This document shows, one piece after another, positions 4,990 to 64,000 of a DNA stretch of 64,000 nt (position 1 is its first letter; each line of letters opens with the position of its first letter). Origin of the DNA: Psammoneis japonica (taxonomy: Eukaryota); the NCBI GenBank assembly GCA_008632985.1, contig QPGO01000040.1, positions 67,719-131,718 on the forward strand. The letters are read 5' to 3'. A model generated the notes under the pieces. It did no database searches. It saw nothing but the letters and a program-made list of their open reading frames with translations, and was not told where the DNA came from. A program made the position numbers and the translations under genes.

Positions 4990-5350
4990 AGTGGATCACC
5001 TCAACCTCTGCTTCCATGCACTGTGCTTTAATGACGAGTGTGCAAACAAAGACAGAATGAAGTGAGAAAAGTGAAAATTGCAAGATGAGATTTTTGTCAA
5101 TCATTTTGGGTTTCCCTGAATGAGTTCTCAATGGCCTAAAGCTTCTGCGCTCTGTGCATGAAAGGCCTTTCAGAAAATGTGGTCATGACAACAGATTGTC
5201 CGGGTGCAATTGCCATTGATGCATGAGGTGTCAACATTGTTGAGTGATTGCATTTGCAACTTTTGCATCCAACCAACTCTGTGTGATTGATTTGTCCTTT
5301 GTGTGAACCCATGATTGATGTGCAATTGAAGTGCAATGATGTTTGGGACA
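4990..5350 (-). mobile_element. Fragment homologous to the 5' leader/LTR region of the Gypsy element (related to ~11810-12180)
   Basis: Shares gtgaaaattgcaa, ttttgggtttccctgaa, aaagcttctgc and tgat.tgtcctttgtg..aaccca..attgatgtg with 11858-12155. Confidence 0.65.
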
Positions 5351-5689
5351 TGTGGACATGGGCTGCATGCATGATGCACACCATGGGGCAATGCATGTTG
5401 CACTCACCTCCCCAGTTGCACATTGGAGTCATTCATCAAATGGCACCATGCAGCAAATGTTGATGGCATCAACAACATCATCACATTTGATCTGCGCTGT
5501 GCCATTGGTGTGCGCCATTGTCATTGTGTGTGCTCCAGCATGAGGCTGTTCCATCTTTTGGGAGTCTTTCTTGAGCAGTGTCTTTTCTCCTGCTCTGCAT
5601 TGTGTGTGTGTGTGGAGTGCATCAAGTGTTCTCTCAAATGTGGTTTTCATTTGTGATTTCTTGTTTTTGTTCCTGGGCTGACTTTTTGT

Positions 5690-7990
5690 CTGTTGCCGCT
5701 TGCATCTGAAGGCTTTGTCAGTTTGGACGTTGCTCTTTTGGATGGGATGACTCTCGATGGATCCAAAGTAAAAGGGGACCCTTCCCTGCGCAGCAGCACA
5801 AGCACTCTCAACAACATTGAACAACACAAACCGTGTCAGCGAGCCTGGACCGTGTGGAGAAAATTCTGTTCAAGTCTGTGTCATCTGAGATCACACCGAC
5901 TAAAGGAACCTCTCGGTGATTGGCGGTTTCCACCATCACAAATGAGAATGCAATCTACCGCATGCTTCTCTCCATCTGAAGACAGCTTGTGTGCATGTGC
6001 TTTGGAAGGTCATGACATCTTCCAAGCAAATGGAGCAATCACTGACTCGACAGTGGAAATTGAGACAGTGCCAACCCCCTCCAAAGATTCCTGTCCGGCA
6101 GAAGTGTCCACAGTCAAGGATGGCCGATGGCAATTCGAGATTCCGCATGCTTCATCAACCGCCTCTCTTTCTCCGGCTGCACCAGACTCTTTTCTCGAGA
6201 GTCTTCAACGATTGGATGTTTGGGAACCAACGCTGTTCAAAGAATTGGCACTGCACGTTTCTTCTTGAGCATTGGCTCAACATTTTCTTTTGTCTGCTCT
6301 CACCGCAGGCAGTGACCGGTCAGTGCAGGAGGGAGCTGCCTTTGGATGGACAATCACCACAGACGGCACTCCATTGGTGGATTGCGCAGGACCAGTTTTT
6401 GGAAAGACACCATCTTTGTGCCGAGCAGAGGCCTGTGGCATCCTCTCAATTGCAAGGTTCATTTTTCGACTGTGTGAATGCTGTCGGATTGCAGCTCCTT
6501 TGGATGCGGTGATTCATTGTGACAACAAGGCATTGGTCAACTGTCTCTCCCAGTTGACATCTGCCTCACCTGTGTTTGACCCAGACAATGACTCTCACGC
6601 TTTGCACAATTTTCACATTCGTCGTCAAGGCGCCAACGCCATTGCCCCAGACTGGGACGTGCTGAATGAAATCCTTCACACCCAGCAAACTCTGACTCAG
6701 CTTTTGGATTCAGAGGACCTCATTCCCCCCCAGTGCTCTGGGTGAAAGGACATCAAGACAGGCATTCTCCGGTTCATGCCTTGCCTTTAAATGCTCGAGT
6801 CAACATCCGTGCTGACAGATTGGCAGGCACATGTCAAGGTCACTGTCTGCATGATGTGGAACAAGTGAAACGTCCACCTCATTGCCACTCTCACCTTGAG
6901 ATAGAGGGAGGTGCTGTGACGTCAAGCTGCAAGAAACAGATCAGATGCGCAGCCACTGCTCCTCAACTGATCGAATGCATTGTCGAACGCAACCAATGGA
7001 ACTCTTCAGTGGCAGATCAAGTGGATTGGAACGCCCACGTGGTCCTGGTGAAGCGCTGCTCAAAGAAACACGTCAACACGGTCAAATTGGTGTGTGGCTT
7101 GTCACCTGCAAATAAAATTGCCCACAGATGCAATCCAGGTTGTCCTCACCAGTGCATTGCATGTGATCATCCAATGGAAGACAGGGACCACATTCTCTGA
7201 TGTCCCAACAATGAACAGTGGAGGAGGAAGTTCTTGCAAGGCCTGCAAAGACACTGCGACAAGGTGGGCACAATGCCTGTTCTTTGTGACTTTCTGTTGG
7301 ACATGCCACAGGCTTGGTTCAATGAGGAAATCACGCATCTCGACAATGTGGATTGCAGATGCAAGGAGTTGTGGAAAGCTCAGTCTGATGTTGGATGGTG
7401 GATGGTGACAGATCTTCAATGGCAGACATTCATTCACGTGGAACCTCCTGCAATCCGGTCATCTTTGCAACTCAGGCATCTTGCGTCAACATCAAGAGGA
7501 AAACAAACAACCACCGGGTTGGACTGTCCAGACAGGATCCCACACATGGAGAAGCTGGTGGGAGCTGTGGGAGGAGCATGACCAGCCAGTCCACAGACAC
7601 GATGTGGAGTCTCAAAAGTCATCACAACGAAGAAAGGTTGAGGCCAAATTGACGGCAATTTACAACAAACATCACAAATGCTTGGCTGAAGACAGAGGTG
7701 TGTTGTTAGATTCAGTCAAGGAACACCGTTCATTCACTGTGACGAGGATTCAAAATTGGATCTCTGTGGTCCGCCCAAGACTCAAAGAAAGCCTGAAAGA
7801 AGCCAAACGCCTGGCTAAAAGAGGCGCTCGCACCATCTTCAGCTGTTTCTGTCGGGCGCCCTCATCCGGGGGCACCGTTTCTGGCCAATTGCACAAAATT
7901 TCTGCTGCATCCTCCGCAGGGTGCACTGGAAGTGTGGGTCAGCCGGCGCCGGTGTTGCTGGGCAAAGGTGCAACAGCACTCAAAATTGGA
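5690..7990 (+). mobile_element. Degenerate non-LTR retrotransposon (diatom RNase H-containing LINE), 3' portion
   Basis: RNase H motifs GSDRSV..GAAFGW, CRAEACGILS (consensus YRAEAYG), IHCDNKALV and WVKGHQD..LPLNARVNIRADRLA; a zinc knuckle CIACDHPMEDRDHIL*C; C-terminal IQNW..AKRGARTI. Contains stops and frameshifts. Confidence 0.8.
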
Positions 7991-10168
7991 GTTTTTTTTT
8001 TGAAGACCAGTTGTCCTGGTGCAGCTTGCACAGCAGCATGACACATTGAACATGCAGCAAAGGCCGCTGCTGACAGCACACCAGAGAGAGGATTGCCTGC
8101 ATCCAGGGGTGCATTTTGTGGGTTGAATGTGCGCAGCACATTGCCTGGTGTTTGGTGCAAGCATTCAACAACTGTGCTCACTTGTGGAGTTGATGCAGCT
8201 GTGGTCATGCCACAGTCATCTTGAGCCACATCTCTCAATTGGTGTCCAATGAACTCACTTCCATGGTCACATGTGATTCATGATGGCCAAGGACATCCAC
8301 TCAACCATGTTTGTTTCAACAGCCCAGCTGCAGTTTTGTGGGTTCCTCATTTAGAATTTTTGCAACTTCAAACCACCCTGCTGGGTCAATCATTGTTGAA
8401 CATTTGAAGACACGGGGTTTCTTCTTTCCCTTGCACAATGCATTTTGTTTGGTCCAGCAGGATCCACACAAAGTTGCTCTCCCCGCGGCACTGATTCTGC
8501 GCACTTGGGGGGCAAATGTCCACCATTTTTTGTGTTTTTTTTTTGAATTTCTGGCACGTCTCACATTTTGACACGCATTTTTGCATGTCTTCACGCAGGG
8601 TGGATCACCACAGGTGTTGTGAGATTGTTTTTTCTTCTGTTCTGTTTGTGCCTGGGTGAAGAAGATGTGCATGGCACCAGCCCATCACCGCTTTCTGCAA
8701 CATCTTTGGAATGATGATTTCATCCTTGTGACATGTGAAATGTCTCATTTGACAAATTGGAGAGAATGTCTTTGTCCCATTTCTGTTCAATGTCAAGAGC
8801 TTTGCAGTTCAATGGAAAGACATTGTCGCGGGATGTTGGCAGGACCTTTTTGACTGGTTGCTCAGTTCTGAGATGTTCCACAGGTTTCATTTTTTCATGG
8901 CAAGGCAAATTGTTTTGGGGCTGCTTTCTTCTGTTGTTGGATGCAGCACATGACACTGTCCATTGTAAAATTTTTGTGTGTGTGAGAGATCGTTGTGATC
9001 CAAGTGTGTGTTTGTCTGTTGGCCAAACAGCATGTTCTGCAACTCTTTTGGTGTTTCCATGACAGACAGCAGCTCTTTTTCTGCTGCAGCTGTGGAAAAA
9101 AACAGGTTGGTTTTGCTGTGCAACAACCACCCCCAATTGAGAATTGCTTGCATCAGCACACATCTCAAAGGGTGTGTTGAAACTTGGGTGTGACAATGGT
9201 GTGTCTTTTGAAATGATGGGCTCCACATTTTTCAAGGCTTTTTGTTCCATTTTGGCCCGTTGCCACTTCACCTGTGTTGGGATGAGTTTGGCCAAAGGAG
9301 CCAGAATGTGAGATTGTCAAGGCCGCATGTCTTGACAACAGTTGATCACACCAACAAGGCACCACAATTCCTTTTGCCAGTTTTTGGAGTGGTGATCACA
9401 TGAATTGCTTCAACTTTTTTTGGAATTGGGGTGATGCCATTGTGGGTGATGTGAAAGCCCAGACAGCCTGCTTTGAGTTTCTTCTTGGCATTGACCTTCA
9501 GCCCAGTTTGTTCAAGGTGCATGAAACCATTTCAAGCTTTTTGAGGTGGTCTCAGAAATCACCTTTGTGAGGCACAGTGTGTCATCAGTGTGAGTTCTGA
9601 CAAACTCCAGACACCTGCCATGAGTTCACTCATGTGCTCTTGGAAAACATCTGGAGCTCCACAGATGCCCCCTGGCAGTCTGCAGTGCTCATGTTTGCCC
9701 AAGAAAGTGCACAAGCAATGTGCACGCTGCATCAGTTTGACATGACAGTGTCCCATGTTCAAATCAAGGGAGGCAGCAAACACGGAACCTTCAAGTTTCT
9801 GTCACATGTCCTGAACGTCAGGCAAAGGAATTGGAGTGCACATTGACCTCTTGTTCAGCTCACGAAAGTCAGAAAGAAACCAAACTTGACCATTTTTCTT
9901 TGGTTGAATGAAGGTCACAGTGCCCATTCAGAACAATTTGTTTTTCTTGAGACCTTCAACTTGCACAGTCTTTCAGCTTCCTTTCAAGTGGCCGGTCACC
10001 TCCAAGGCTTGTGGCATGGGGAATGGTTTGGCGCAATGTGGACTCATGCCTGGTTTCAACTTTAAATCCACTGGCATCCTGGTCCACTTGCCCAGAGAAC
10101 CATTGAAAAGGTTTTCAAATCATTTTGAGAGGAAGTTCAGCTGCTTCTGCTCTTCTGGGTTTAGATGA

Positions 10169-10206
<38 letters not shown>

Positions 10207-12200
10207 CACATTGTTGAGGTTGGCACAACATGACAAGCCAACCTGAGTCAAGGAGCCAATTGACAACCCTGTCATTGAATCCAATCACAGCATGAGATTC
10301 CTCAAAGTGGTTGGCAATCAACTTGAAAACATCGGCATTGAAGAGTGCACCAACATTCTTCACAGGCACAGTTGCGTCCTCTCATTTAATTTCTTTGTTT
10401 GAAAAGTCCAATGTGGTCCTGAGACTTGACATCAAGTCACATCCCATGATCACATCATGACAACTCAAAGAAGAAGGGGTGTTGTCAACATGTCCCCTTG
10501 TTTTGATCATCTCATGTTTGTCAAATTCCAGCAAGGAGAACCAAATTTTACACCGATTCTTTGGTTCTGGGTCATCACGTCAATTTGCACAAAATTGTGG
10601 TTGACAATGTTCTGCTGTCAAGGAGAACATGAAGAGGCTTGTTTGAGCCACTGGACTTGCATGAATTGTTCTGGCCCTTTTTCTAGGCTTCCCAACATCC
10701 AGCAGAGTCACTGAGCATCAGTTTTTTAAATTGACAGTTCTCCTTGCTGAGGGTGTCAGAGTTGCAATCCTTTCTCTTCTTGTGCTTTGCATCTTTGTTT
10801 GAAGAACTTGCCTTGGGTGTTTTTTGATCCACCTGGATAATTGCAGCATTCAACTCTTCCTTGCGAGTGGCGTTTTCATTGTTGCAACATGACCACATGC
10901 TGTTGCCATTTGAATGGCACCACTTCAGATCATGACCACCATTTCTGTGGCACTCTTTGGCCAGCCTTTTTGAAACCCAGCACTTGCCCGCATTGTGGGT
11001 GGTCTTTTCGCAATGGCTGCACCACTTGTCAGACTCAGAAGCTTTGGCACCAGATTGGTGACCATTTTTGGAACCATGGTGCTTGCTTGGATCCATTCTT
11101 GGCTTTCAATCCAGGCTTGTTGCTGGCATCAGCTTGGACATGAGCAGAGTTGCGCGTGTCTTCTGCAACCTGCTTTGGATGCCCCCAAAACTCAGCCAAC
11201 TCATTCAAGGTGTGCTTCAAAATTTTGGGCCCTTTCTTGGTCAGCTGACACTGCCATTTGCAAGGTGCAAGGTTGCAGACAACATTCTTGAGATCATCAC
11301 CCTTGACCTTCTGATCTTCCTTGAAAGGAGGACAACACTTGAGGTCTTTGTTGACTTCTTGAACCCAGGTGGCAATTTCTTGGATCTTCATGGTCTCTGG
11401 CTTCTTGAGATCATGCCACAAATGGCATTTCTGAATTTGGACTGCATTCTTTGGAAAGACATGACTTGTGCAAGGTGTTGCAGGCATTTTTTGAAAGCTC
11501 CTTTGGCTGGCTCATCTTCAAGATGCAGCGCCATTCTCAACTTCTTGTTTCTTGATGTTTTGACCCACTGGGAGTTGTTTGCAGCTTGTCAGGAATTTGA
11601 GGCACTTCAAAATGCCTTGTTGCTTGCAGTGCTTGACATTGATTGTGCAGGTGTGGCTGTCCTTCTTTTCTGGGTGAAAGCACTGCTCCTGGCTTGGTTT
11701 GAGTTTCTTTGGTTTGGAGGTTGATTCCAACAGCGCTGGAGCTGTTTTCTCTTGAGGTGAAAGCTTTGTTTCTGTCTTGGCACCTTCTGTGGTGTGCATG
11801 CACAATGCACCATGCTCAAAGAACAAGCACAGACAAAGGCAGATTGAAGTGCAAAAAGTGAAAATTGCAACATTGGATTTCAGTCAATTGTTTTGGGTTT
11901 CCCTGAACAAGCTCTCAATGGTCCAAAGCTTCTGCACCTGCTCAAGCAAAAATTGATGCACTTCAATCATGGGCGAGTTTGTGCATTTGCAAAATTGTCT
12001 CATTTTCCATTGGTGGTCATTGGCACATTCATCACCTGGTGATTTTGCTGTGGAGATTGCATGTGGAATTCTGCGGGCCCAATGTCACACGGATTCCCAC
12101 CTGCATCTGAAATGCATCTTGATCTGTCCTTTGTGCAAACCCACAATTGATGTGTGGTTGAAGCACAACAACACATTCATGACACATGCAGACACACACA
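7990..12200 (-). mobile_element. Degenerate Ty3/Gypsy LTR retrotransposon (gag, protease, RT, RNase H, integrase)
   Basis: RT: AASLDLNMGHCHVKL and GKHEHCRLP..APDVFQEHMSELM. RNase H: FEMCADASNSQLGVV. Integrase: WCHAHLLHPGTNRTEEKTI, CETCQK, TMIDPAGWFE, ECLHQTPGNVLRTF and APGQLVF. Gag: LKKPETMKI..CCPPF and CSHCEKTTHNAGKCW. Domain order RT-RH-IN. Confidence 0.9.
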
Positions 12201-12349
12201 CACACACACACACACAGTGCACATGACAGTGCATGTTGCATCCACATGATGGCATTGAATTGATTCACCAGTTTCTGAGTCATGCCCACAAATGGTGTGA
12301 TTGTGTTGTTGATCCCACAATTTCTGCAATCAAGGCCAAACAGAGCTGC

Positions 12350-14530
12350 CAATCACAGCGGCCCAATCCACTCTGGAGTTGTCAGAGCCAGAGCTTTGAA
12401 CCATCTTTAAATGCTCTGGCTGCACCTTGCTCCAAAGGGAGGAGAAGCAATGGTTGAAAAGGTGCCACACCATCTAATCTGCTCTTGAGAGTGGAAAACC
12501 AGCACCAGTGCACTGTGGTGAAGCTTGTTGGCAGCATGAACCAGTTCCTCATGGAGCCAAGATTCTGGTGCTGCCAACAGCACAAGTTGCGCAAAGGAGG
12601 AGACATGTTGCAAGCCTTGAAGGAATGTGTGTCACCAAACTTCATTGCAAGAAGGACACCACAGAATGTGATTCCTGTCTTCCATCAGATGTTGACAATG
12701 GATGCAGCAGCTGGGTCAGATGGGGTTGCACTGGTCAACTGTCTTGATGGCAGACAGAAAATCTTGAGCCAACTTGGCTGCATTGACTTTCCTGCAAATG
12801 TTGCAAGACATGAGTTTTGAATGGACAGGCCAGTCAATGGAGTGGAGCACCTTGTCAGCCCATCCACATTTCTCTTTCATGTGCTGGATGTGGGTTGGAC
12901 TTGATGCCTTGAAGTGTGACAACAGCAGAACAATGTGGCACCCTGGGAGCAACTGAAGTGCTGCCAGGAAAATTCCTTTGATGTTGACCTGCAATTGACC
13001 CACACAGACACTCATCTTTGCCAGAAGAGACAATGACTCACAAGGGGCTCAATCATCTTGGTGTCCTTTGATCTGCTGCACACTGACTTGAGTGTTGAGT
13101 GCATGGCGGCTCTGCGAACGGGGATTTGGACAGGCACACAACTGAAAATTTTCCAGTCAGCCAACATCATGTCAGCAACATGATGTCTGTGGCAGCAGTC
13201 AAGAAAAGACAAGCTCCAGAAGAGCTTGCTTCATCTGAGATGGGAAATGGTGCCTGCAGATTTGCAATGTCTCAGATGATGGCAGAATTGCTGCAGTGTG
13301 GGTCCAAACCCAGCCAGAGGAAAAACAGTCTGACAACATTCCACAACCAAGAGCGTGGGTTGAACAAAGAAGAGTGTGCCTCATGCTTCTGTGTGGTGCA
13401 AAGAACGGTGAAACCCAAATGCAGGACCGGTGCAATTGACTGAAATCAAGTGATTGATGGCAAGCATCTGTCCAAATTCAGCATCAAAGTCAATGACCGA
13501 ACCATCGCTTGCCACTGCAGCTCAAGAGAACTTGCTGTCAGAGCAGAGTGAGCCAGCATGTGTGCCACCAACATGGGTGTGGGTCCACTGCTGCCCCTGG
13601 CAATGATTTTTCTGTCCACAGGGCTGCGTTTGATCTTGGCAACAAACTCACATGGCATGGACCAAAAATGGAAACAGCCACACACGTGTGTGCTGTCAAA
13701 CAACAAGTCCAGAATTCCAGAGGTTTTGGTTTTGAGCAGAGTCATGCAGAAAATGTCCTGTGACCACACAACAATGCTTGTGAAAGCTCATTGGCAAGCT
13801 GGGGCTCTGCTCATTTGCGTTGTGCACCAGACCACAGCACTCATGTCCTGGCATTTCTGACATGCTGTTGCTGGCACATTTTGCCACTGGGTGAGCAACA
13901 ATGTGTCATTGCTTCAAAGCCACGGGAAGGCTGTTTTGAGGGTTGCCAAACTCTCTTTGTGTTTTTCTCATCATTGAGTTCACAGCCCACACAAAAATGG
14001 TGCCAAACAAGGAATCAATGTCATGACCCTGCTTTGAACAGATTAAATCCAAGTGGCTGCAAGTTGTTGGAGATCTTCAAAGCACCCCTTCAGTGCATTC
14101 CTTGGATGGGTGCTGACTGTGCAGCAAACTGGGTTGCTCACTCATCCTCTTTGATGCTGCTCTTTTGTCCACACCACATTCCTCATGCTCTGCAGGTGGT
14201 TCCAGACCTTGCCAGTCATCCAAACACGTGTTTTGTCATTGACATCTTTGCAAAAGTGTGCCCTCCTTCTCTTGCTCTCATGGCTGCACTGCTGTCAACT
14301 GGCCTTTTGTGCAAACCTCATCTCTGTCAGGCAAATGTTGTGTGGCAGCAAAGACATGTTCCAGCTCCAGGTGGGACCTCACACTGCTGAACTGTGACAT
14401 CAACAGTTTTTGGATGGTGCCACATGTCACGCATGCAGATGGCTGCATGTGACATTCTAAGAAAATGTTTCATGTTCCCTGTTTTGTGAAGCCCCAAAGG
14501 CTTTCTGTTTTCAATTTTTGACATTTGCGA
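12350..14530 (-). mobile_element. Second degenerate RNase H-containing LINE relic (same type as 5690-7990)
   Basis: Minus strand gives AVASDGSV (~13490-13520), CTGPAFG and MLADWKIF. GWADKVLHSIDWPVHSKLM..KVNAAKLAQDFL matches QWNSSVADQVDWNAHVVLV..HVNTVKLVCGL of the first LINE. Confidence 0.7.
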
Positions 14531-15638
14531 GAATTAAAACACCCTCTGGGGGGGGAGGGGCACATTCTTCAATGTTTGCAGAACACACCCAGGCAAACTG
14601 TCAATGATGCACTTCAAGTGTGAAGGAGGAGATGCGTTCATGAAATTGGCTCTATTTCTGTTGGCGATCATTTGTTTGCTGCACTTTCATTGCTTGGCGA
14701 AGTTGCTGCGGAGCTTGCACATGGAATCCCACGGGCCAAATGCCACATGGAGTCCCACCTGCTGGGACTGGAACCTGTCCAATGGCAATCTTTTGTGCTG
14801 CATGGTCATTGCAAAAAAACACGTAGAAACTGTGCAGACCAGTGCCGCCAAAAAAATGCAATTTGTTTGTCTGTCCGCCCTTGGTGAATTTTAATTCTGC
14901 AAAAAATGGACTTGACTGCCAACTGATCAGGTGCATTTCTGCAAAAGTTTTGAGAAGACAACCATTTTGGTGCAAAAACATGCAGCAGATTTTGTGGACG
15001 TCCTTGAGCAATTTGTGGGTTTTGTGTCACGGGTCATTTTCGAAAGATTGTTGTTGAGACGAGAGAGGACGGCTCTGCAAATTTTGTGCACAAGGGGATG
15101 CAGCCATGGCTCTGCTGCAAAAAGCCTGTGCACAGCTCTGCAAGCAAATGGGGTGCATGTTGGGCTGGTTTGTGTCCATGGCAAGAACTTGAGAAATGCC
15201 AGCTGCCTTGGCTGCACTCAGCCCAAGCTCACATGTGTCCCCCCATGAAAAGCTCCGAGTGCAGCTCTTCCCATCACACTGGCTGGATGTCTGCTCCAGA
15301 TCAACACCTCAGACAGAATGCAAGCAAAGAGGATTTGCTGATGAGCAGTGATGGGAGTTCAGCCAATGGTCTTTGCCAAACCGCTGTTGACCAAATCACA
15401 AGCTGCCCAGAGGACTGAGTCTGCTGAGTGCAACAAAGCGAGATTTTCCCGCACACTTACACTGGAGACTGGTGCAAGTTTTAGGGAAACAAGCACTGCT
15501 GAAGCAATCGAGCTTGAAATTCGGGGGACGTGGCGCAAAAGAATTTCAATCAGAATTCCGATGGACAGAATGACAGACACACACATGGAAGATTGGGTCA
15601 GTGGACAGACGACCCACGACTCACTCTACTACGTCCCG

Positions 15639-24205: not shown

Positions 24206-24479
24206 GATGTGGTGTTGGTGGTAGATACTGTGGTAGTAACGAGAGTGATGTAAACAAACAACAACAAACGACGTGTTGATAATTGTTGTTGTTGTTGCTC
24301 TCAACGCTCGCACCACCACACGTGACCTCTTCTTGAAAAATGACCGCGATCTTTCCAATGCGGGCGGACGGAAGGAAGGACGGACGGGTCAATGCGACCT
24401 GAATCGTTTATTCGTGAATGAATACATAATGCAATTGCTTACTTAGTGTAACCTGTACATCGGCCAATGACGCGTTGTT

Positions 24480-25750
24480 GTGTTTTTTGTGAGCGCATCA
24501 TGTGTGGTCCTCCAGCTCATGTTTTGTGGTGCTTTTTGCCAAAACCATCCCAACATGCCCACATTGAGAGATGTGCCACGACATTGCTGGCAAAAACTTC
24601 CAGCAATGACGACCCATTCTTGTGTGACCAGCACATTGCTGCCTCGTCGGTTCTTGTTGCTGACAAAGTTGTTTCTCATTTGGGTGCTCTCACAACTTCT
24701 GAGTTGCTCATCAGCTCACGGTCCACAAAAAAATCACCAACTTTGTCTCCTTGCTTTTGCTGCTGCCACGAGTGTTGTGTTGCCCTCAACATGAGGGCCG
24801 GCCTGCTTTTTGCCTTGTGTGCTTGTTGCTTGTTGATGCGGCAAAGCTCTGCTGTGTGCTGGTGCACCTCATGAGCTGAGGCAGCAACAGCAACCAACAG
24901 CAGCATTGGACAACAAACTCCCATTGTTTGGGGGATTAAAGTCACCATCATGATGCAGCAAATGTGGTGCCAGTCATTCTGGTCTTTTGAGCTGCTCTTC
25001 AAAATCTCTTGACAAAAACCAACAGTTTGGTGTGATGCACCTCAGCAGTCGCTCACCCAGAAGAGCTTCACAGCCCTTGACTTTGGTGTGAATGGGAAAA
25101 GGAGGAGGCACACCAGCAGCTGCAAAAAAGCTGCAAAAAAATGACAGAAATGCACAAACCATTTTTCGGTGTGTTTGAGATTTTTTGACGCCAGTCAACA
25201 CAACAGACCTGGTCCAGTGAATGATGGGATGATGTGCATGACTGAACTGATGAAGATTCTCATCTGCCAAACTTTTGCGTTGCTCTCATTTTCCTTTGTG
25301 CCCTTCCTCCACTCAAGACTGTTTTGCTGCAAAAGCTGCATCAAACTCTCGCTTTTGCTGTGCTCAAAGTTAGCATCATGGCACAGCGGTTGCCAGCACC
25401 TCCAGTCATGAGCCACACTCCCAAAACTCTCAAGTGCCTGAAGTTTGGCCTGGTGCACCTTGGCACCCCCCAACCACAACCACTCAAAGCCAGCGTTGAC
25501 CTCATGAATGTTTTGACCTGATTTCCACAGAAAAAAAAAAATAGCTGCAAGGAGAGAAAGCATGCAACAACAACAAAATGCCATTGGAAACGGGGGAAAT
25601 CACCAGCCATGTTTGTTCTGCCACAGCAGTGAACACAATGACATTGTTGCAGCTCTCTTGGTGTTGCACCTCTCTTGGTGGTGTTGCAGCGCCGATGTGA
25701 TGGTGGGTGCGGTTCGTGATGGCAAAAACATTCTCGAATTTTGCGCCAGC
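24480..25750. other. TpA/CpG-depleted hypermutated island 2 (unidentified repeat relic)
   Basis: Abrupt compositional switch like domain 1. The few surviving TpA are attaaa, gttagc and aatagc. No recognisable protein motif. Confidence 0.85.
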
Positions 25751-26050
25751 GCACATTAACGCGCGAAAACACACATTGTAGGATCCGCTATCTTGTGGTA
25801 AACAACGAGTAAACATGTGTTATAGAAAGGTATACAATGAGGAATGCAATGTCGCAAGCTCGGCTTTACGCAGCATGTGGCACAGTGTAAACAGACCGGC
25901 ACTGTCGTTTCTAGACTGACGCCGCCGGCCAAGGACGTTGGTCAATCCATCGACGATGACTTGAATTACTGACGTAACGTGGAAGTAACGCATGGACGTA
26001 TCATGAATTCATCGCACTCCAAAGCCGCAGCAGTGGCCCTCACCAAGAAC

Positions 26051-44051: not shown

Positions 44052-45104
44052 TCATTCATCTCCTAGTTTCATGACCTGTTCTGTTAAGTTCGTTAAGTTG
44101 TCAACTAAAGGTTTGAGGCTTGTCGACAAATCTGTGCTTGGCTCCAATTCTTTATTCAACTGTATGAGCACTGCCCAAATGGCAATCAAAAGCAAAGGCA
44201 GGCCACGGTAGATATCACAACGCCAGTGATGACAAGGGCAGTGCTTGCACGTGTCACATTTTCTCCACATGCGGCACCACGGGCAAGGAAGGAAAGGGAT
44301 CATACTCCAGTACAAACACACCACGGGGTACCAGTCGTCTTCAAAGCACATGTTCGGAAGTCGTTTTCTCGTTTCCTCGTATACATTTCTTCCTGTTGCT
44401 TCCCTGCAATAGGCGATGTAGTCGTCGTAGTTGTCGTATTCGTCATACTTTTTTCTCTGCTGCCCAAGACTCAACTGAGCTGCATTGATTGGGGGGATCG
44501 TCAAGACAACAGCTACAATCCCACAGATTGCGACTACTTTGCGGATCCTTTTGCCGTCTTCGTAGTTGGTATTTCCCATGGTGGCCGTGAGAAAACCAAG
44601 CATGAGAAAGGTCTGAGAGAGGATCAACCATGATATCCGGTGGTTCAAGAGATTGTCTTCGTGGCTAGTGGCTTGGGCAAAAAGCTTAAATCTTTCGATT
44701 TGTGTCAACTTTCCATTCTCGAGCTCCTTGTACTTGTCACTTTTCAGATCTTCTGGTGGATCGTTGCTGCTGTGATGTTCTTCGGCCGTGCGACTTTCCG
44801 GAGCGGCCTCGCGTTCCGGAATCGGCTTGAATATCCATTCAATGACACGTGTTCCGAATCTCCGTGCAATGACGCATATTACGACCATACATGCAATGAC
44901 GCATGTTCCGAATATCCGTGCGTTTTCTCGGCATGTGCCATTTTCCGAATCTTCATTTTTTGAACTCTGACTTTGTTCGGCCCTGTCAAGTTCCGAATCT
45001 TCGACGACCTCGTGTGATTCAGACTGTTCTACTCCTGACATGCCACTTTCCAGATCTTCATTTTTTGATTCTTCCTCCTTGCTACTTTGATTTCCTTTGG
45101 ACAT
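44052..45104 (-). CDS. Hypothetical multi-pass membrane protein (350 aa)
   Basis: Intact ORF with an acidic N-terminus, about 4 hydrophobic segments, the motif HEDNLLNHRISWLILSQTFL and a Cys/His/Trp-rich loop. Confidence 0.7.
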   Translation of the reverse strand: MSKGNQSSKEEESKNEDLESGMSGVEQSESHEVVEDSELDRAEQSQSSKNEDSENGTCRENARIFGTCVIACMVVICVIARRFGTRVIEWIFKPIPEREAAPESRTAEEHHSSNDPPEDLKSDKYKELENGKLTQIERFKLFAQATSHEDNLLNHRISWLILSQTFLMLGFLTATMGNTNYEDGKRIRKVVAICGIVAVVLTIPPINAAQLSLGQQRKKYDEYDNYDDYIAYCREATGRNVYEETRKRLPNMCFEDDWYPVVCLYWSMIPFLPCPWCRMWRKCDTCKHCPCHHWRCDIYRGLPLLLIAIWAVLIQLNKELEPSTDLSTSLKPLVDNLTNLTEQVMKLGDE

Positions 45105-45109
45105 GGTGA

Positions 45110-48100
45110 TGAGATGGAATCAATCAATCGAAGATGGAAGTTCGTCACGGTTTTGTTTCCAGTTTTTCGGCTTCCTGTCTTGCTTTTTGGCGTCGCAGAA
45201 GACGTTGCGCATGTCTCTGTCTGTTGATCGTTTGTCAGATTGATTGAGGTTCACAAAATTGTTTTGGGTGACCTCATTCCAAAGACAGATGCCAGGTTCC
45301 ACCGAAACTCCGCTCTGCTCAAGGCTCTGCTGCAGCAACAGATTAAGCATTCTTGCAGGCTGGTTCAATCTTCAGTGTGAACTCACATCATCACTCAGCC
45401 ATTCTTTGGATTCCCAGTCGTGTCTCACCCAAAACTGCTTTCACGAGAGCAGCCCTGGCACTGGGCTGCTGGAGAGAAGCCAGCTCAAAAAGGGCTGCTT
45501 CCCAGGGCCTCCCTCTCAACAAGGAGGAGCCATTGTGGACAATTGGTGTCAGGTGGAAGAAAACACCGCTGCGGACATCTTTCCATTTTTTGGTGGGTGT
45601 GCTGAGGCAGCAACAACTCCTCTCCCAGTGTGATGCACCGCAGCTTGGAGCCAGCACACTCCAACACCAACCCCTTCTTTCAAAGCAGTGGGGCACATTG
45701 CTTGGAGAAAAAGAGCAGCTGCCAAAAAGTCTTTTTCAGTCTGCCACAACCAAGCCAAGTGGCCTGGGTGGGTGCTTGACCAGCAGAGCAGAGTGGAAGC
45801 TTTGTGCGCTGGCACATCTGCAGCACTTCCCAAAAGAAAAGTGGGCCAAACAAAGAGCAGCAAATGGGCAACTCAGTGCTGCTTGTCATGTTGTGCCAAT
45901 GCTCAAACACAACATTTTTCACCATGCAGCCACCCTGCCTCCTCTGTTGTCACTGGCAGCTGCACTGGCATGTGGTGGTCTCCTCACTCAAAGAAAGAGA
46001 CTTTCAGCTTGTTCTGGACAAACAGAGAGAGGTGCTGGGTTGTGAGCCATCACTGCATCAACAGCACACTGATGGACATTCATGAGTGTGCATTTTTAAC
46101 AAGGCAGCAACAAAGAAAAAAAGCATGACCTGTGCTCTGTGGCCTTGTGTGGAGCTGCCAGCACCAACTTTTCCAAGACTCGCCAAACTGCACGCAGCAC
46201 TTCTCCACCAGAGCACTCCATTTTCATTTGGTCTCCCCAAAGGGTTGTTTGCAAAGCAACAATCCAAACAACCTTTGAGTCTTTCAGAGCAGCAAAGACA
46301 TGGTGATGAAAAGCTTCAAACAAACTCTCTTGACTTGCAAGCCAGATTGAAGCCACAGAGCTGCAGCCAGCCAGCTCTTGCCTTGATTGCCCCTGCTCAC
46401 TGCTCATTTCTTTGGTGTGTTTGTGTGAGACAGCAAACCTTGACATGTGCCTCTGCTCCTCTTGACTTCAAACAGCAAAAAGATGCTGCACAGCCCAAAT
46501 TTGTTGCTTCAAAAAAGAAAAAAATGTCACATCATCAGCTGCTGCCTGACGCTGTGTCCAAAGCAGCTTGCGAAGCAGCACTCAAGCCAAAAGAGATGTG
46601 CTTGTTGCAACAAAGCTCTTTTTCTCTCACTTTTTTGCTGCCATGCCCCATGGAGGGCCCGCACCACAGCAAAAAAAAAACAGGCTGAAAACTCAATTTC
46701 TTCTGGAAACAATGAAGACAACCTGATGAGCTTGGGCAGCTTTTTGTTTTTGTGGCAATGGCGCTCTGTGGTGCAAAAGCTGGAAATCAAGCATCATTGT
46801 GCTGACATTGCAGCAGCTGAGACATTTCTTGCCACACATGGCTCCTCAATCTCTTGTGCCTGTTCCCCACCATGTCTGGGTGTTTTCCTGGGCTCAATGT
46901 TTGATCTTCTTCCACCACAGATGTGAAGGAGGATTGATGTGGAAGATGTGTCTTTCCAGCAATGTTCACAATGTGCGCCAACATGAATTTTTTTTGCAGA
47001 CCTGCAAGAGGCAGCACAAAGTCCCTTGTGTGCTGTGCAACTTCAAGCCAGCTTTTCTGCTTGCTGCAGCCAGCATCAGCAAAAAATTGGGCTCATGTTG
47101 CCATTGTTTGTGCACAGCAGAGGGATTTGGGCAGTGTTGAGTTGTCTTGAGCTGGTCCAATTTGTTGGTCAATTTTGGCACGTTTCTCCAGATTTCACTG
47201 CTTCCAATTTCTTCTTGTTGTTGGGCTGGTGGGCCTGCCCACTTTTTGTGGAAGTGCTTTCAGGCTCTTTTGACTGGAGAGTTGATTGGGCTGTTCTGGG
47301 CATCCCCCTGGCAGATTGCAAATTGCTGTTTGAGGTTAGAAAAGCAAGTGATTGTGCTGAGCTTTGAGAGAGCTGGCACATTTGGCACTTCTTGTCATGG
47401 GTGCTGTGGGTGTTTGATTGCTCAAAGATTTTGAATCCTGCCCTTGCAGGCTCTCAGCTCTCCTGGTGGCATGGGGTGAGGAACTTGAAGCTGGGGCTGT
47501 CAGTGCAGTGGTCTGTCTGATGACTCAACTCTGTGCTTCTGTCAGCCACAGATCCTTGATTCCATTTTTCATCCATTGATTCCATTTTTCATCCATTTTT
47601 AAGAGCAACATTGTTTTTGTTGTTTTCTGTGATGTTGCCTGCTGCAATGCACATGGGAGTGTGTGTGTGCAATCCTGCAAAGGACAGAGAGAACTCACAC
47701 AACTGGTTGTTGCACTTGCAGCATCAAGCAGCAATGACAGCTGTGATTGCCAGCACAACCTCCTGTCTGCAGCACAGTGCTTCTCACTGGGCTGCAAACT
47801 TTCAGCACTTCAGTGGTGCATGCCACATGTTGCACTTCATCATGATCCTCTGCACCCTCCTCCCTGCAAAAGTTGACATGTCTGCACTCTGCAGCACTTG
47901 GGGGCAGTTTTGCAGGTGGTGGCTTCATGTCCCAGGCAGGAGGTGTTTGAGCCTCCATGCTTTGTGGCATCATTGGCACCATGACAGCCCTGATGTTGGA
48001 GATGAGTCAAATGGCTGTGTGAACAGCTGCTGCATTGCTTGCTTTCAGAAGTCCAGAAGATCCAAAGATTTGCTCTGCACACAGGCTCTGACACACCAAC

Positions 48101-51100
48101 CATGCAGGTGATGCCACACACATGTGTGCACACTGTGATGATGCACAGTGCACACAAATCATCACTCTCATGTTTTGCCAGAAAATCATCATGGTTTCTG
48201 CTGGACCACAAGCACCACTCCGAATGATTTGTCCAAAGTGGTTGGCAAAGCAGCGTCTGATCAAAAAAGGAATGCAGGAAATGTGATTGCAACAAAACTC
48301 CCCCTTTCTCTCTTTTTCCTGCCAATCCATTTTCATGGCAGAGGGTCAACCCCACATGGCACCTCATTGCACCTCTCCATCAATGTCAAAACCAGGCTGG
48401 CTGACTCTTTGATTTCTTCCAGATGAAACAAAAGCTGGAGACATGCCAGATGAACTTTCTGATTTGTGGCAAAGATGCCCCCCATTGAGAAAAGGGAAAT
48501 CAAGCAGCACAGCAGCATCATGGCACGGCAGAAATCAGACACCCCTTGTCACAACTCTGCACTCTCCTTCTTTTTGTTCCCTGACATGCACTGAGACATT
48601 TTTCTAAACTCAACTTGTTTGATCTTCCAGCCACAATCATGGACAAAGGAGGAAAGATGTGTGTTTTTCCAGAAACTCACAATGCCATCATGGTTTGTGT
48701 CATGGCACAGAGGAGGGGCTCTTGTCCTTTCCACTTTGGGGAAAAGTTGCACAAGGGGAGCAATGTCAACTTCCACATCAAAAACAAATTTCTGTTGAAC
48801 ACACATGCTCAGAATTGTTGTGGGTTGTGTGTCAGCCAGATCAAGACAGCTGGCGTGTGTTTGTTGATGACCGTGGCACCCAACTTCTGACAGAGGAGGG
48901 AGGAGTGGGGAGACAATGTGATGATGTGCTCATTGCACTGTGCTCACAGTGTTGTTCCAAAACTCCCCAGATCAAAAACCCAGACAAAACACACAAAAAA
49001 AGGGTGCAAGCCACCCTGCTCAGGATTGTGCGCCAAGAGTTTTTGGCCCACCTGCTGCACACTTTTGCAAACATGCTTGCACGTGCCACTTCACCTGATC
49101 AACATCCATCAAGCTGCTGACAGTGTCCATCTTGACAATTTTGTTGCAGCAGCAGCTGCCTTGCTCACTGCTGCCTCCTCTTTCAGCAAAGCTCCTGCAC
49201 CTCATTCTCTCATGCATGCCCCCTGTGGAGAGGGCACTTGCTTAAAAAATGCAAAGAAATTGTGCTGCAGGAGCAGCACAAAGCAGAAGACAAAGCCTGT
49301 TTGGGATTGACCTCTCATGTGGCCCTTGATCTGCACCTGCTCATCCAGGTTGCCCACAGCAGCGCCAACTGGTGACATGAGTTTGCCCACTTTGCCCAAT
49401 CTGTTGTCATCCGTGACATCTCAGAGCATGATTTTTGCTCATGGAGTGTTGCCAAAGAGTGTCTGGAAAGCACACAGCAGCAAAGCCTGGTCATGCAGGA
49501 CAATGGCTGGTCATTTTGATGGAAATTGATGCCGCAGTGCTCTGTCTCAACACTCAAAATCTAGGGAGGTTCTTTGCTGGGCAATTTCCAACAACCTCTC
49601 CTGGTTTTTCAACCTGTGTCTTCTTGCCTGCCATGGCTCCCTTCTTTCTCAAATCTTTTTCAGCCACAGGTCACTGATTCTTGGGACAGGCATCTTGTTC
49701 CTCTTAGAACCTCTCCACTGCACTTGACATTTGACAGGGGGGTCAATGGCTTTTGCCTTTGCATCTTGTCAAAACTCTTTGAGTGACAAGAGACCAGGGT
49801 CCACAGTGGCTTTTTCATCTGCCTGTGTGTCTTTGCGCTTTTACCCCCACACAGCGTGAAATTCTCAATCCATGGCGGTCGGAGTTGCAAAAATGTGCTG
49901 CATCAACAATGACCCACTCACTGTTGTTGCCGTTTGTGTCTTTGTGCCTTGGCAGAAATTGGGCAGTGCTTGATGAGAGCTGTGGTTGGTTTTTCTTCTC
50001 AGGGAGCTCTTGGTGGAGAAGCTCTTGCAGCTCCTTTTGGTTCTCTCTTGGGATTTGGAGGCATGGCATGGCCAGAGGATTTCTTTTGCTGCTGCTCTTG
50101 CCATGATGTCTGCCTCTGTCTCTTGCATTCTTGTTTTTCTTGCAGCCTGACAAAATTGGGCCAAGTGGCCTGGATGGTTGCTTGAGCCAAGTGGAGGACA
50201 CTTGCTGATGTGTCTGTGTGTTTCACCCAAAAGCAGATCAAATGAAGAACTGCACCTTGGCTGCTGGGCACAGCCAGTCATGTTTTGTCAGACCTCAAAC
50301 ATGGCAACCACATTTTCATCATGCAGACTTCCCACATCCTTTGTCATCACTCTACAACCATGCCAACCTGTGGTTCTTCAAAAAAGAGACTCAGTTTGTG
50401 CTGGGCAAATTGAGATGGGGTGTGAACCACCGCTGCTTTGACAATGTGCAAGTGGGTGTCAATGGATGCTTGCTTTTGACACAAGGCAACAACAACAACA
50501 ACAACGGTGACAACAACAACAAAAACAACAGAAAAGCTTGTTCTCTGTTGTGTGGCGTTGTGTGGCACTGCCAGCGCCAACTCTTTTGACTTGCAAAAAA
50601 CCACATTTCACACAGTGCTTTGCACCAGAACATTCTGTTTTTGCTTGGTCTCCTTGTGGGGCCAAGTGCAAAGCAACAATCTCAACAGCCTTTGCAAGCC
50701 CTTTGGAGCCAAAAAGATGCACAATGCTGAAAAGTTTCAAACAAACTGTTGTGGCATGCTGCAGATTGAAGCCACAGACTCTTGTCTTGGTTGTCTGCTC
50801 TCCATCAATTTTTCTTTGGTGTGCATTTCATGCTTTTGAGTGAGACAGCAAATCTTGGCATGGCCACTGTGCTTCTGCTCCTCTTGATTTCAGGTGGCAT
50901 TGCAATGCTGTGCAATCCAAGTGTTGCTTCAAAGTCAAAACAGCACATTGGCTGTTGTCCCACAATGCATCCAAAGCAGCTCCTCTCATTTTCTTCTTTT
51001 GCAGCCTGACCCATGGAGAGGGTCTCCACCACATTGCTTCAGGTCACATCTCCCCATCAAAAACAAGGCCAGAGGTCAGACTGAACACTCAATTTCCTCT

Positions 51101-52120
51101 GGAAACAAGCTGGAGACAACCAAATGAGCTTTTTGTTTTTGCGGCAATGATGTTCCGCAAAAGCAGGGGAAATTGAGCACCACAGTGCTGACATTGTGGC
51201 AACTGAGGCATTTCTTGTCCCCAGCTCCACAATCTCATGCACTTCTTGGCCCCTGTCATCACATGTGTTTTTTTCTGAATTCAATGTTTGGTCTTCTGAA
51301 GGAGGGTCAACATGCAGAAGATGCGTTTTTCCAGCAGCACACAACTTTGATGTCAGAACATTGTTTTGTTTTTGCAGATCTTCTGCAAGAGTGCCACAAA
51401 GCATTTCTTGGATGCCACATCACACTTCTTCAAGACAGAAGCTCCTCAGCTTCTTGTTGCAGCCACAGAAGAAGTCTGGCTCATGTCACCCTGTGATTTT
51501 TGCACAGCAGTGGAGCTGGGCAGTGTCGAGCCATTTTGAGCTGGCATGATTTGTCATTCAATTTTAGCATGACTTTCCAGCAGCTGGCTGCTCCCTGATT
51601 TCTTCTTGTTGGGCTGGGGCCCGCTGCTCTTGTGTCGAGGAAGCTCTCTTGCTCTTTTTTGGTTGGAGAGGAGAGCCTCCCTCCTGGTGGCAGCCCCCCT
51701 GGCTTGCCAAATTGATGCTGATTTCTGGGCATCCTTCTGGCACATTGCCAGCTGTTGTTTGAGGTTGGAAGTTGAGTGTGAGTCAATGCACGGTCCTTGT
51801 TGTTGTGTGGCGGAGGTGCTGGCCTGTGTGTTTGGCTCTGCTTCTTTTGGCGACAATTTTGCTCTTTCTCTTCACACTGCTGTCGACATTCTTTTGGCAG
51901 TCATGACTCACTACACTGCTTCCTTTATGAACTGAAAGAAGATCTTCAATCCTGTCCTTGCAGGCTTTTGATTCTTCTGATGGAGTGTCAGTGTCATCCA
52001 TGTCAGCATCTGATGTTGGTGGTTGGTGTTGGTCGCGTCTGCACACATGCATCCATCATCGCATGCATCTGATTGAATGCTCTGTCCTTCCGTCAGCAGT
52101 CAGCAGATGATGATTCGACA
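45110..52120. other. TpA/CpG-depleted hypermutated domain 3 (unidentified repeat/transposon relics)
   Basis: About a dozen TpA by eye in ~7 kb, about 9 of them in YTAR context. Dense spurious Cys/His-rich ORFs in all six frames. Confidence 0.95.
46680..47160. repeat. Diverged direct repeat, second copy at ~51078-51545
   Basis: Both copies share actcaatttc.tctggaaacaa, gctttttgtttttg.ggcaatg, gtgctgacattg, tcaatgtttg.tcttct and gaagatg.gt.tttccagca. Confidence 0.8.
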
Positions 52121-52206
52121 CTCGATTGCTCTTCAAGAAAATATGGATGCATGATGCCGGCGACCGCCACCATGGAGCCAATCTCTCCCCGATGAATCCT
52201 TCAATC

Positions 52207-60832: not shown

Positions 60833-62624
60833 CTACTTTGCTTTGGTGACTCGAACGATTCGACACCCTTTGAACTCACTGCCGGATTTGTGCGTCCCGT
60901 AAATACATGCTTGCTGACGCCCTGGGCTAAAGCCGGTATGGTGGAGTTTGAATACGAGAATATTGTCCTTAAGACCGTCGAAATTGACATCCTTCTTTCT
61001 CAACCCGATAGGTTCTGCCTTATCAGGACCGAATCGAATGGATTTCACGTCCAACTGTAGGGCGTCGAATTCGCCGGTTGTGAGTACGGCTACGCTGATA
61101 CTTTCTTCTGGGCGGGCTCTGCTGATCTTGATATCATGTTTCTTCTTAAATGGCTTGATGCTGACTTCTACAACAAGAGCATTAACGGCAAGTGGAAGAA
61201 AATTATAAACGGAAATGTCGTTTCCACCAAGGATCGTCACACGATTCCCACTGCCAGCCATTGAAACCCCACCAGCACCAAAGCCAAGAGTTCCCTCCTC
61301 CCCGTACAATCCATTTCCCAACTGTAGCCAGGAGGTTCTATCAAAGTGAAACATCCGAGCGAATCCGGCTCCTGAAGTACCCACCATTTCATCAAAATCT
61401 CTTGCACCAACAACTACTCGCCCTCCGTCACTCGACATCGAAACAGATTCTCCGAAACCATCATTGTACTCTGCTTCAATGTCGTTTCCTACCATGTTCC
61501 AAAGCTTCTTAGATTCAACCCACTCCATCACACGTGCGTATCCACTTTCTCGATGTCTAGCTTCACCAATAACAACGCGGTTTCCATTTTGAGATATCGC
61601 AACGGAGACACCAAAGCCGCGGTCTTTTCCTATGCCGTAAATGTCTTGTCCTTTTTGCACCCAAGAAGATGATCCCTTCCTCCTCGTGAAGACTTGAGTC
61701 CTGCCAACTACTTTTCCTGATTTTGATGCGTAAGGGATACCTACTGCCAATTGATTCCCATCTCCTGACATTGCGATGCTGTACCCGAAATATCCATAGT
61801 TCCCTCGGCTGTCTAAACTCTCCAACAAGTATCCCCGCTCTTGCCATTTGGATCCACTCCAGTCAAATATTTTGACCTGTCCAGGAACTCTGCCACGGCC
61901 CACCCAGAGTGAAACCGCAATAGTTTGCCCATCATCAGACATTGCTACTGCCTGGAAGTACCCTCGAAGGTATTCAGTGCGGAACCACATTGGAATGCTC
62001 TCCCCGACCTGTTCCCACCTTCGACGACGCCACTCAAAGACACGAACTGTTTCCGATCCTTCAGCAGTAACAAAATACTTTCCATTGCCCGACATGGCAA
62101 CTTCAGGACTGTAATGTTCTCCTTCAATCATCTGACCCATTCGCTGCCAGTCCGACCTAAACGAACTCCATTGATATGCACGGAGGGGTTTGCTTCGTCC
62201 AGACAATGAGAGGACCAAACGGTTGCCATCTCTCGACATTGCCACCTTAATACACACGTATAAGAAGATATGATGAGCAACGATCAGATAGCCAGGCATA
62301 TACAAAGCAGATTAGCTTTCTTACCTGATGGAATCTTTTTCTTGAATCTAAAGATATATTTCGTCCCATTCGAACCCACTCTCCAATGTCGACATCAGTT
62401 GAGCTCTGAGAAGCGGATGACAGTGATACATTGCCAAGGTGTCGTACGTGAGTGACATTGTTGCTTAGGGAGGTTGCTTCACTCGTAGCGAGACTAGTGT
62501 TATGCTCCTCCTGGACAGAATCTTCCTTCGCTACTGGATCGATTTGAGCGTTTGCACCTTTGCAAGACAATGCAAACCACAGCAAGGATCCCAACGCCGC
62601 GCACTCTAGAACATTGCGTGTCAT
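60833..62624 (-). CDS. Secreted beta-propeller protein (FG-GAP/WD-like repeats) with a prokaryote-like C-terminal domain; exons 62325-62624 and 60833-62245 (~570 aa)
   Basis: Signal peptide and repeats FG.S[VI]..S..G..[VL]..G. A 79-nt GT..AAG intron joins KRFHQ to VAMSRDG in frame. C-terminus contains VAVLTTGEFDA..FGP..DVNFDGLKD. Confidence 0.8.
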
Positions 62625-63443
62625 GATAGTCTGGTAGTCACGTTGAATAAAAAAGTTCCTTTGCTAACATGAAATGACAGTAAGCTAATCGTCAGATGCG
62701 GCAAAGTACGAAAAGAGACAGTGCGTAGGTTCTGCTTACCGTACCTGATTTTTGCCGTCTCTTGACGAGTTGTGATCTCACTAGCTAGAAGTACTGAAAG
62801 GGCGTATGTTAAGGCTCTTATGGAATGAGGCTTCCAGCGCTGTGTTACTCAGTTGATGTTATGGTTTCTCTATCTGATCTACCTACCGGAGCTACGTCTT
62901 TTTGCGGATTCCGATTTGTGTGAAAGAAGAATCGTCATCAGTTAGTTAGGTCGGAGTTCGCGGGTCTTCGGTCATAAGTGAAATACATTACTTAGGGAGG
63001 AAAGACAGCTTCTCCCTAAATAATGTTCTACAAATAATGTCCGACGTAGAGTCGAATAATACTCTCGGAAACATTTATTGTGAATGTTCCTTTTCATTTT
63101 TTGCAATGACCGAGACGTGTCAACGCGAACTCTGTGTCTTCGATCCGCGAACGAATGCGGCGCATCACAAATTCACCCCACACGCAACAACACGGTACAA
63201 ACAGAAGAAGCGCGAGATAGATACAAGGGCAAACCATCACTGTTAACAGCGCTCGATAAAAAGTTCCCTTTTTAAGAGCGTTTGCTCGCACCTTTCTCAC
63301 AATTCTACAGAGCGAGCAGGCAGTCAAACCCAGACTCACAAGAAGAGGCAAAATTTGGCAACCTGCAAAGTGAACTGTTTTGCATCTTTCCGCTTCTAAC
63401 CACTCGCTTGAGCGTTTGTTGTCCAAATGACTATCAGATCATA

Positions 63444-64000
63444 ATGATGCACAGGACTCTAGATTGCACGGCATTGGGAACGTTTCTGCTGGCATGGCTT
63501 TGCACAGGCGCAAACGGACAAGGCGATCCAGTGGTGCTTGAAGATTCTGTCGGGATGAAGAAAGACACAAGTCTCGCTGAAAGCCACCACAATGCTCACA
63601 GAGGGAGGTTTGACATTGGAATGGCTTTGGCAACCAATGATCGCTCATGCGTGAGCGACCTTGCGGATGATGAATCACAAACCTCGTTGACAAAGGATTC
63701 GGCTGCTTTCGACATTGGAGAGTGGGTGCAAATGGGACGAAGCATCTCTGTGGACAAAAGAAAAAGGCACAAAATGGTGGCAATGTCCAGAGATGGCAAA
63801 CGTGTGGTCATTTCAGAGTCTGGGACATTTGAAAAAGGCGGCACTGTCCGTGCATGTCAACGGAACTCTGTGAAGTCGGATTGGAAACAAGTGGGCCAAA
63901 TCATTGCAGGAGACGAGCTCAGTCCGCTAGTGGCCATGTCGGGAAATGGAAAACATTTTGTTGCTGCCGCAGGCAGGGAAACAGTTCGTGTCTTTAAATG
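63444..64000 (+). CDS. Divergently oriented paralogue of the beta-propeller gene (runs off the window); TpA-eroded, possibly a nascent pseudogene
   Basis: Open frame MMHRTLDCTALG..DIGEWVQMGRSIS..VAMSRDGKRVVIS..RACQ..SDW..VAMSGNGKHF..ETVRVFK aligns to 60833-62624. It lacks the intron and has no Tyr in 185 codons. Confidence 0.8.
   Translation, partial: MMHRTLDCTALGTFLLAWLCTGANGQGDPVVLEDSVGMKKDTSLAESHHNAHRGRFDIGMALATNDRSCVSDLADDESQTSLTKDSAAFDIGEWVQMGRSISVDKRKRHKMVAMSRDGKRVVISESGTFEKGGTVRACQRNSVKSDWKQVGQIIAGDELSPLVAMSGNGKHFVAAAGRETVRVFK

Follow-up and report, generated by a model that had tools for sequence, protein, structure and literature searches.

The 5' part of a host gene in the 64,000-nt stretch of DNA analysed here (the window) is nearly free of TpA dinucleotides, and we consider it probable (roughly 0.8) from the composition of the sequence that it belongs to a chromosomal segment within reach of a mutator acting at the DNA level, which would convert TpA to TpG or CpA in a process shared with three repeat domains of the same window. 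The gene copy, a paralogue of an FG-GAP-like gene, occupies positions 63444 to 64000 on the forward strand (the tract), where the ATG at 63444 opens a frame that runs for 185 codons to the window end with no stop and no Tyr; that the frame is open and lacks Tyr had been described in a first-pass annotation of this DNA. The hydrophobic N-terminus of its product, read by eye from the sequence, looks like a signal peptide. The affected stretch probably extends past the end of the window.

The 557 nt of the tract contain exactly three TpA and 25 CpG, the same counts that the first-pass annotation had given, which corresponds to an observed-to-expected ratio (o/e) of 0.087 for TA and 0.75 for CG. 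The residual TpA are at 63460..63461 (context CTAG, at a position where the paralogue also has CTA, and within the zone 63443-63532 that holds the left edge of the tract), 63928..63929 (again CTAG) and 63995..63996 (TTAA, which in the repeat domains is spared more than any other context). In the tract TG and CA reach o/e values of 1.57 and 1.55, respectively, compared to 1.18 and 1.19 in normal DNA, and their excess corresponds by a rough estimate to 18 conversions. The 557 nt directly upstream hold 25 TpA, against the three of the tract. The TpA-free gap from 63460 to 63928 spans 468 nt and is the sole gap longer than 261 nt outside all three repeat domains; a 347-nt gap at 51565-51912 lies inside the third of these domains.

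Five control genes of the window have 16, 18, 20, 13 and 21 TpA in their first 555 nt, and while the genes of the window are somewhat TpA-poor in general (o/e 0.46-0.56), the TA o/e of the tract is about 6-fold below that of every control gene. Synonymous recodings of the tract protein with the codon usage of the window (n = 20,000) gave 19.3 ± 3.6 TpA with a minimum of 6, under a null model that overshoots the control genes by about 6-9 TpA. Chance combined with codon bias was thus ruled out as the source of the deficit by both the control genes and the recodings.

Elsewhere in the window, positions 22951-23500 are the sole place with five or fewer TpA per 557 nt that overlaps neither a repeat domain nor the tract. 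This is a low-complexity coding stretch, rich in Gln and Pro, within the gene at 21188-24388 (reverse strand), and it has a CG o/e of 0.37, and its low TpA and CpG content probably stems from amino-acid composition and not from mutation.

The paralogue that serves as the reference for the tract lies at 60833..62624 on the reverse strand and, by a splice model and its translation, encodes 570 amino acids in two exons. Its TpA has not been erased: the span holds 64 TpA, 86 CpG and 16 Tyr codons, with a TA o/e of 0.55-0.60, and the fact that it is untouched suggests a mutator whose target would be a region, and not repeats in themselves. The two copies are arranged head to head, 819 nt apart, and the intergenic DNA between them (62625..63443) has a normal TpA density, with 46 TpA in 819 nt. 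They align with 89 of 170 amino acids (52%) and 351 of 510 nucleotides (69%) identical, with a pairwise dS of about 0.60 and a dN/dS of 0.59 over 170 codons, a ratio that pools both branches and is uninformative on present function. In a blastn comparison 63428-63578 matched 62640-62487, such that detectable similarity begins about 16 nt before each ATG. A tblastn search for a third copy in the window returned these two alone. The intron of the paralogue (62246-62324, 79 nt, GT..AG) has no counterpart at the corresponding site of the TpA-erased copy. We note that the donor of this intron (reverse strand) reads GTAAG and so contains a TpA; erasure would convert such donors to GTGAG or GCAAG, making splice sites potential targets.

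The gene family to which both copies belong is large and carries FG-GAP-like repeats, with 562 representatives at E ≤ 0.001. The 185-residue fragment itself gave no Pfam match at E ≤ 0.01, while most of the relatives found via exon 2 of the paralogue carry a precomputed assignment to FG-GAP_2 (PF14312), and one of them is named as Chaetoceros tenuissimus. A search for a full-length protein or close orthologue of the erased copy yielded a single protein, P0001, at 38% identity, and none of the 562 family representatives is nearer than it. P0001 is a 610-residue protein from a public assembly, encoded as one continuous product on a 2094-nt contig (which could be RNA); it is 63% identical to the paralogue over exon 2 and scores 22.3 bits against PF14312, where the cut-off is 23. 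Scanning metagenomes for DNA of an orthologue gave none with a single protein as the query, and with an alignment as the query gave two weak relatives (L001 at 42% and L002 at 27% identity, over short stretches) that were left out of the analysis. We used P0001 as the outgroup for the comparisons that follow.

At the 16 aligned positions where the paralogue has TpA, the erased copy has TG in six, CA in three, TA in one and some other dinucleotide in six; this count of 9 conversions in 16 rests on one paralogue at 69% nucleotide identity. Conservation between the copies is thus 6% for TA, as against 31-83% for the other dinucleotides. The reverse change, TG or CA in the paralogue and TA in the erased copy, was found once, and 9 to 1 in favour of TA>TG/CA gives a one-sided binomial P of 0.011 (calculated by hand). 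Both strands were affected, with six TA>TG and three TA>CA changes on the coding strand.

Polarization with a protein outgroup is possible at amino-acid sites only, and two such sites bear on the direction of change. Where the paralogue has TAT (Tyr) in the motif GKYF, the erased copy has CAT (His, 63954..63956, forward strand) in GKHF, and since P0001 has Tyr at this site the His is derived by TAT>CAT. At the second site the erased copy has TGT (Cys, 63855..63857, forward strand) in RACQ, aligned to TAT (Tyr) in RAYQ of the paralogue; P0001 has Phe here, and the Cys is plausibly derived, most simply from Tyr. In 365 stretches of family repeats taken from 172 of 269 member proteins, the Cys site is occupied by Tyr or Phe in 286 of 363 (79%) and by Cys in six, while the His site is variable across the family (n = 208: 94 Arg, 44 Thr, 13 His and 8 Tyr). 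The motif differences had been reported in the first-pass annotation along with the proposal that a host gene had been recoded; both are borne out, firmly polarized by the outgroup for Tyr>His and plausibly so for Tyr>Cys. Orthologues that shared the Cys and His had been named there as evidence against recoding, and the nearest relative, P0001, carries Phe and Tyr.

In the 161 columns common to the three proteins, unique changes number 16 in the erased copy, 20 in the paralogue and 31 in the outgroup. Judged by this comparison of sequences, the erased copy is not degenerate at the protein level.

On its left side the tract begins abruptly, in the zone 63443-63532, at the start codon or a little way into the gene, and unmutated TpA are found directly before the ATG in CTAT (63432) and ATAA (63442). 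The right edge lies beyond the window end at 64000, and the TpA loss may, as the first-pass annotation proposed, have spread from a repeat past that point. A contig from the Illumina-type run X1, which may be the window's own source sample and is in that case not independent, runs 408 nt past 64000 and matches the window across the tract save at 63473 and 63839, neither of which restores a TpA. At the contig level this agreement rules out an assembly artefact; runs X2 and X3 contributed no sequence to the comparison. Four differences were counted for the X1 contig, of which three are listed (63308, 63473 and 63839). At 63308, just upstream of the tract, the window has CA and the X1 contig TA. 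In the 2.5 kb before 63308, one difference alone is found among those listed, at 61339, and it comes from a 187-nt contig.

The differences at 63473 and 63839 are both CpG transitions, decayed once in the window and once in the X1 contig. Differences between the two thus affect 2 of 25 CpG in the tract and 0 of 135 in 60800-63443 (Fisher P = 0.024), a weak hint that CpG decay may be under way in the tract.

The extent to which CpG has otherwise been retained distinguishes the tract from the repeat domains. The tract has 25 CpG, compared with 29 in the first 557 nt of the paralogue, and its CG o/e is 0.75, where the paralogue (60833-62624, counted with its intron) has 0.90, normal DNA 0.97 and the domains 0.15-0.47. 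When the window was divided into 128 non-overlapping bins of 500 nt, 41 were TpA-poor, and 36 of these were also CpG-poor while five kept a CG o/e of at least 0.5, the highest value, 0.77, being that of the tract's bin. Conversely, a CG o/e below 0.5 was found in one of the 87 bins with a TA o/e of at least 0.2, a low-complexity Gln-rich coding stretch. CpG loss is therefore nested inside TpA loss in the window. TpA has gone while part of the CpG remains in another place as well, the sub-block 5600-7800 of the first repeat domain, which combines a TA o/e of 0.06 with a CG o/e of 0.47, twice that of the rest of the domain. The view taken in the first-pass annotation, that TpA loss is uncoupled from CpG decay, holds on the strength of the five TpA-poor bins with retained CpG, and the pattern fits a faster or earlier loss of TpA. 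The annotation had further described the copy as caught early; as far as this meant retained CpG the description stands, and the balanced protein divergence agrees with it, but a lower dose of mutation than in the mature domains is not borne out.

The three repeat domains are located at 3319..15457 (TA o/e 0.04, CG o/e 0.25), 24457..25756 (0.03 and 0.36) and 45084..52141 (0.03 and 0.15). Together they hold 46 TpA in 20,497 nt, as compared to 1,799 in the 42,946 nt elsewhere in the window, and their TA content and their TG and CA o/e values of 1.7-1.9 are like those of the tract; their CpG is depleted. When 11 long open frames from the three domains were compared with Pfam, a single match emerged, a gypsy-type RT_RNaseH_2 relic in the first domain (8723-9316, reverse strand; PF17919, E = 4.7e-8). 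The domain edges at 45084, 52141 and 24457 are no more than a few tens of bases away from where a neighbouring gene has its 5' end: near the first is the ATG, at about 45104, of a gene at 44052-45104 (reverse strand), near the second the ATG at 52147 of a PPR gene, and some 70 nt separate the third from the end of the open reading frame 21188-24388 (reverse strand).

The 46 TpA that survive in the domains are unevenly distributed over contexts, with 15 in TTAA, 8 in TTAG, 6 in CTAA and 2 in CTAG, and none in ATAT, GTAT, ATAC or GTAC. All 16 context counts are recovered by a per-strand model with independent attack on each A, in which survival of the A depends on its 3' neighbour (0.65 for A, 0.28 for G, 0.07 for C and 0.05 for T). 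These survival figures make TAY the preferred site, and leave TTAA as truly spared and CTAG as average. The three survivors of the tract had all been placed in the spared context by the first-pass annotation; this applies to TTAA, which accounts for 15 of the 46 domain survivors, and does not apply to CTAG, which at 2 of 46 is about average. TTAG and CTAA, with 14 of the 46 between them, count among the spared contexts too. At the dose of the domains, two CTAG survivors in the tract would be unexpected (P = 0.004), and of about 19 other expected TpA none survives. However, the CTAG at 63460 falls inside the edge zone 63443-63532, and the CTAG excess thereby loses its significance. The three TpA left in the tract agree poorly with a simple dose model.

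Given that the 79-nt intron is missing from the erased copy and that the depletion begins at or near the ATG, we considered whether it might be a processed retrocopy of an mRNA that had undergone A-to-I editing at UA, such that TpA was lost on RNA before insertion. ADAR-type editing prefers a 5' U, according to a preprint on Bigelowiella natans (10.64898/2026.01.13.699255), and to that extent such an origin would account for the dinucleotide affected. On the other hand, editing of a sense RNA yields TA>TG alone, while three of the nine conversions are TA>CA, including the best-polarized change, Tyr>His, and TG and CA are enriched equally (1.57 and 1.55). A head-to-head position 819 nt from the parent is better suited to a local duplication, and the reach of similarity, which ends about 16 nt upstream of the ATG, likewise counts against a retrocopy. 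The reading frame of P0001 is continuous as well (with the proviso that its contig could be RNA), so the intron of the paralogue may be a gain. We regard a retrocopy as improbable.

That the tract belongs to a living gene whose low TpA content reflects chance, or else selection on a property such as mRNA stability or codon use, is very unlikely in our estimation, even though the frame is open with no frameshift relative to paralogue or outgroup, the protein change is balanced (16 unique changes against the 20 of the paralogue in 161 columns) and window genes are generally somewhat TpA-poor. The deficit is some 6-fold deeper than in any control gene, and not one of the 20,000 synonymous recodings had fewer than 6 TpA. 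Moreover, amino acids were altered in the removal of TpA, including the change to Cys at the site where 79% of family repeats have Tyr or Phe, while the TpA that remain could all be removed silently and so were not kept by selection on the protein. Non-coding repeat domains share the composition as well. It was also conceivable that the tract had been copied by gene conversion from a mutated family member residing in a repeat domain elsewhere, with the mutator never having acted at this locus; the sharp left edge, close to the point where similarity between the copies becomes detectable, and the size of the family (562 representatives), are in keeping with such an event. But the tblastn search of the window found the two copies alone, and had the donor come from a mature domain, CpG depletion (0.15-0.47) should have come with it, while the CG o/e of the tract is 0.75. 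Conversion is very unlikely in our view, and mutation of the tract in place, together with the repeat domains, is the reading that we prefer.

In the mechanism that we propose for mutation in place, the change would be an A:T>G:C transition of the A of TpA on either strand. The agent may be an adenine deaminase acting on DNA, following the proposal in the B. natans preprint, with a preference of TAY >> TAG > TAA as suggested by the survivors in the domains. Exposure would be set not by duplication but by position in the DNA, namely inside a chromatin domain that is silenced or carries a mark and that ends at the promoter region which the two genes share. CpG decay would be a separate, slower step that depends on cytosine methylation and that has barely begun in the tract or does not apply there.

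The consequences for a coding sequence follow from the genetic code. TAY becomes TGY or CAY, NTA becomes NTG or NCA, and a TpA that spans two codons (NNT followed by A) becomes NNC followed by A or NNT followed by G, and no stop arises in any of these cases. Since stop codons cannot be produced by TA>TG/CA, the gene has escaped truncation and has instead been recoded, with Tyr>Cys, Tyr>His and Thr>Ala among the changes. For the same reason the intact frame, which the first-pass annotation had taken as a sign of an early stage, has no bearing on age. The same conversions also delete TAA and TAG from every frame, and because these stops vanish the repeat domains show long open frames in several phases. 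It is possible, though we think it unlikely, that the copy is expressed and still encodes a functional protein, secreted or at the cell surface, which leakage of the mutator is rewriting without introducing stops. If that were true, a defence directed at repeats would have the side effect of mildly diversifying duplicated host genes that lie close to silenced DNA, and would be a counterpart, with the protein left untruncated, of the leakage of repeat-induced point mutation (RIP) at fungal effector genes.

A literature search on diatoms, or on TpA hypermutation generally, found one relevant source, the B. natans preprint. Mettrop et al. describe a hypermutation restricted to TpA that strikes giant-virus and virophage DNA integrated in this organism (bioRxiv 10.64898/2026.01.13.699255). 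Each of the 231 de novo mutations that they measured across two such viral regions hit a TpA, giving TpG or CpA, and almost all were A>G or T>C; they report coding sequences and clusters depleted in TpA and enriched in CpA and TpG, some with domains of likely host origin, and they propose an ADAT2-like adenine deaminase as the agent (10.64898/2026.01.13.699255). The tract resembles the B. natans case in the conversion of TpA to TpG or CpA with either strand hit, in regional confinement beside normal DNA (25 TpA upstream and three in the tract), and in a long-term footprint of TpA depletion and CpA and TpG enrichment in which CpG is not involved. It differs in that erasure is near-complete here (o/e 0.03-0.09, as opposed to 0.45 in the viral region there), in that the targets are transposon-type repeats and a paralogue of a host gene in a different organism, and in that de novo mutations were measured in B. 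natans whereas here the footprint is read from sequence. The 3'-neighbour rule comes from the domains of the present window, and the available text gives none for B. natans (10.64898/2026.01.13.699255). The target in the tract is not foreign or mobile DNA but a gene of host type, and its closest relative is the paralogue beside it.

A deaminase of the proposed kind would have precedents in substrate choice. The tRNA adenosine-34 deaminases (TadA, ADAT2/ADAT3) act on a substrate with U before the edited A, in bacterial TadA within the UAC context of the anticodon loop, and this U-before-A substrate fits both TpA and the suggested preference for TAY; action on DNA would be a further step here.

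In the RIP of ascomycetes, C>T changes occur mostly at CpA, create TpA and stop codons, and hit both members of a duplicate pair, and in Leptosphaeria maculans the process reportedly leaks from repeats into neighbouring effector genes. The tract resembles RIP in that dinucleotide-specific transitions occur in repeat-rich compartments and reach adjoining single-copy or host genes, and in that secreted-type proteins can be altered. The chemistry is nevertheless opposite, with TpA removed and stops unable to arise, and the adjacent duplicate is untouched where RIP hits both copies. We know of no link of TpA erasure here to a sexual cycle, unlike RIP. On both counts, the chemistry and the fate of the duplicate, the tract falls outside RIP, and fungal RIP is a functional analogue with the opposite chemistry.

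The untouched paralogue 819 nt away and the outgroup protein together fix the direction of change, and the combination of erased TpA with almost untouched CpG separates the process from methylation-driven CpG decay. Because this chemistry recodes without truncating, open reading frames in such DNA are no evidence of function, a practical warning for gene annotation in genomes that carry TpA-erased DNA. Duplication alone does not trigger the process. In print so far there is one 2026 preprint, on a chlorarachniophyte; if our reading holds, a TpA-specific DNA mutator would also be at work in a diatom-like alga, and would reach an ordinary host gene.
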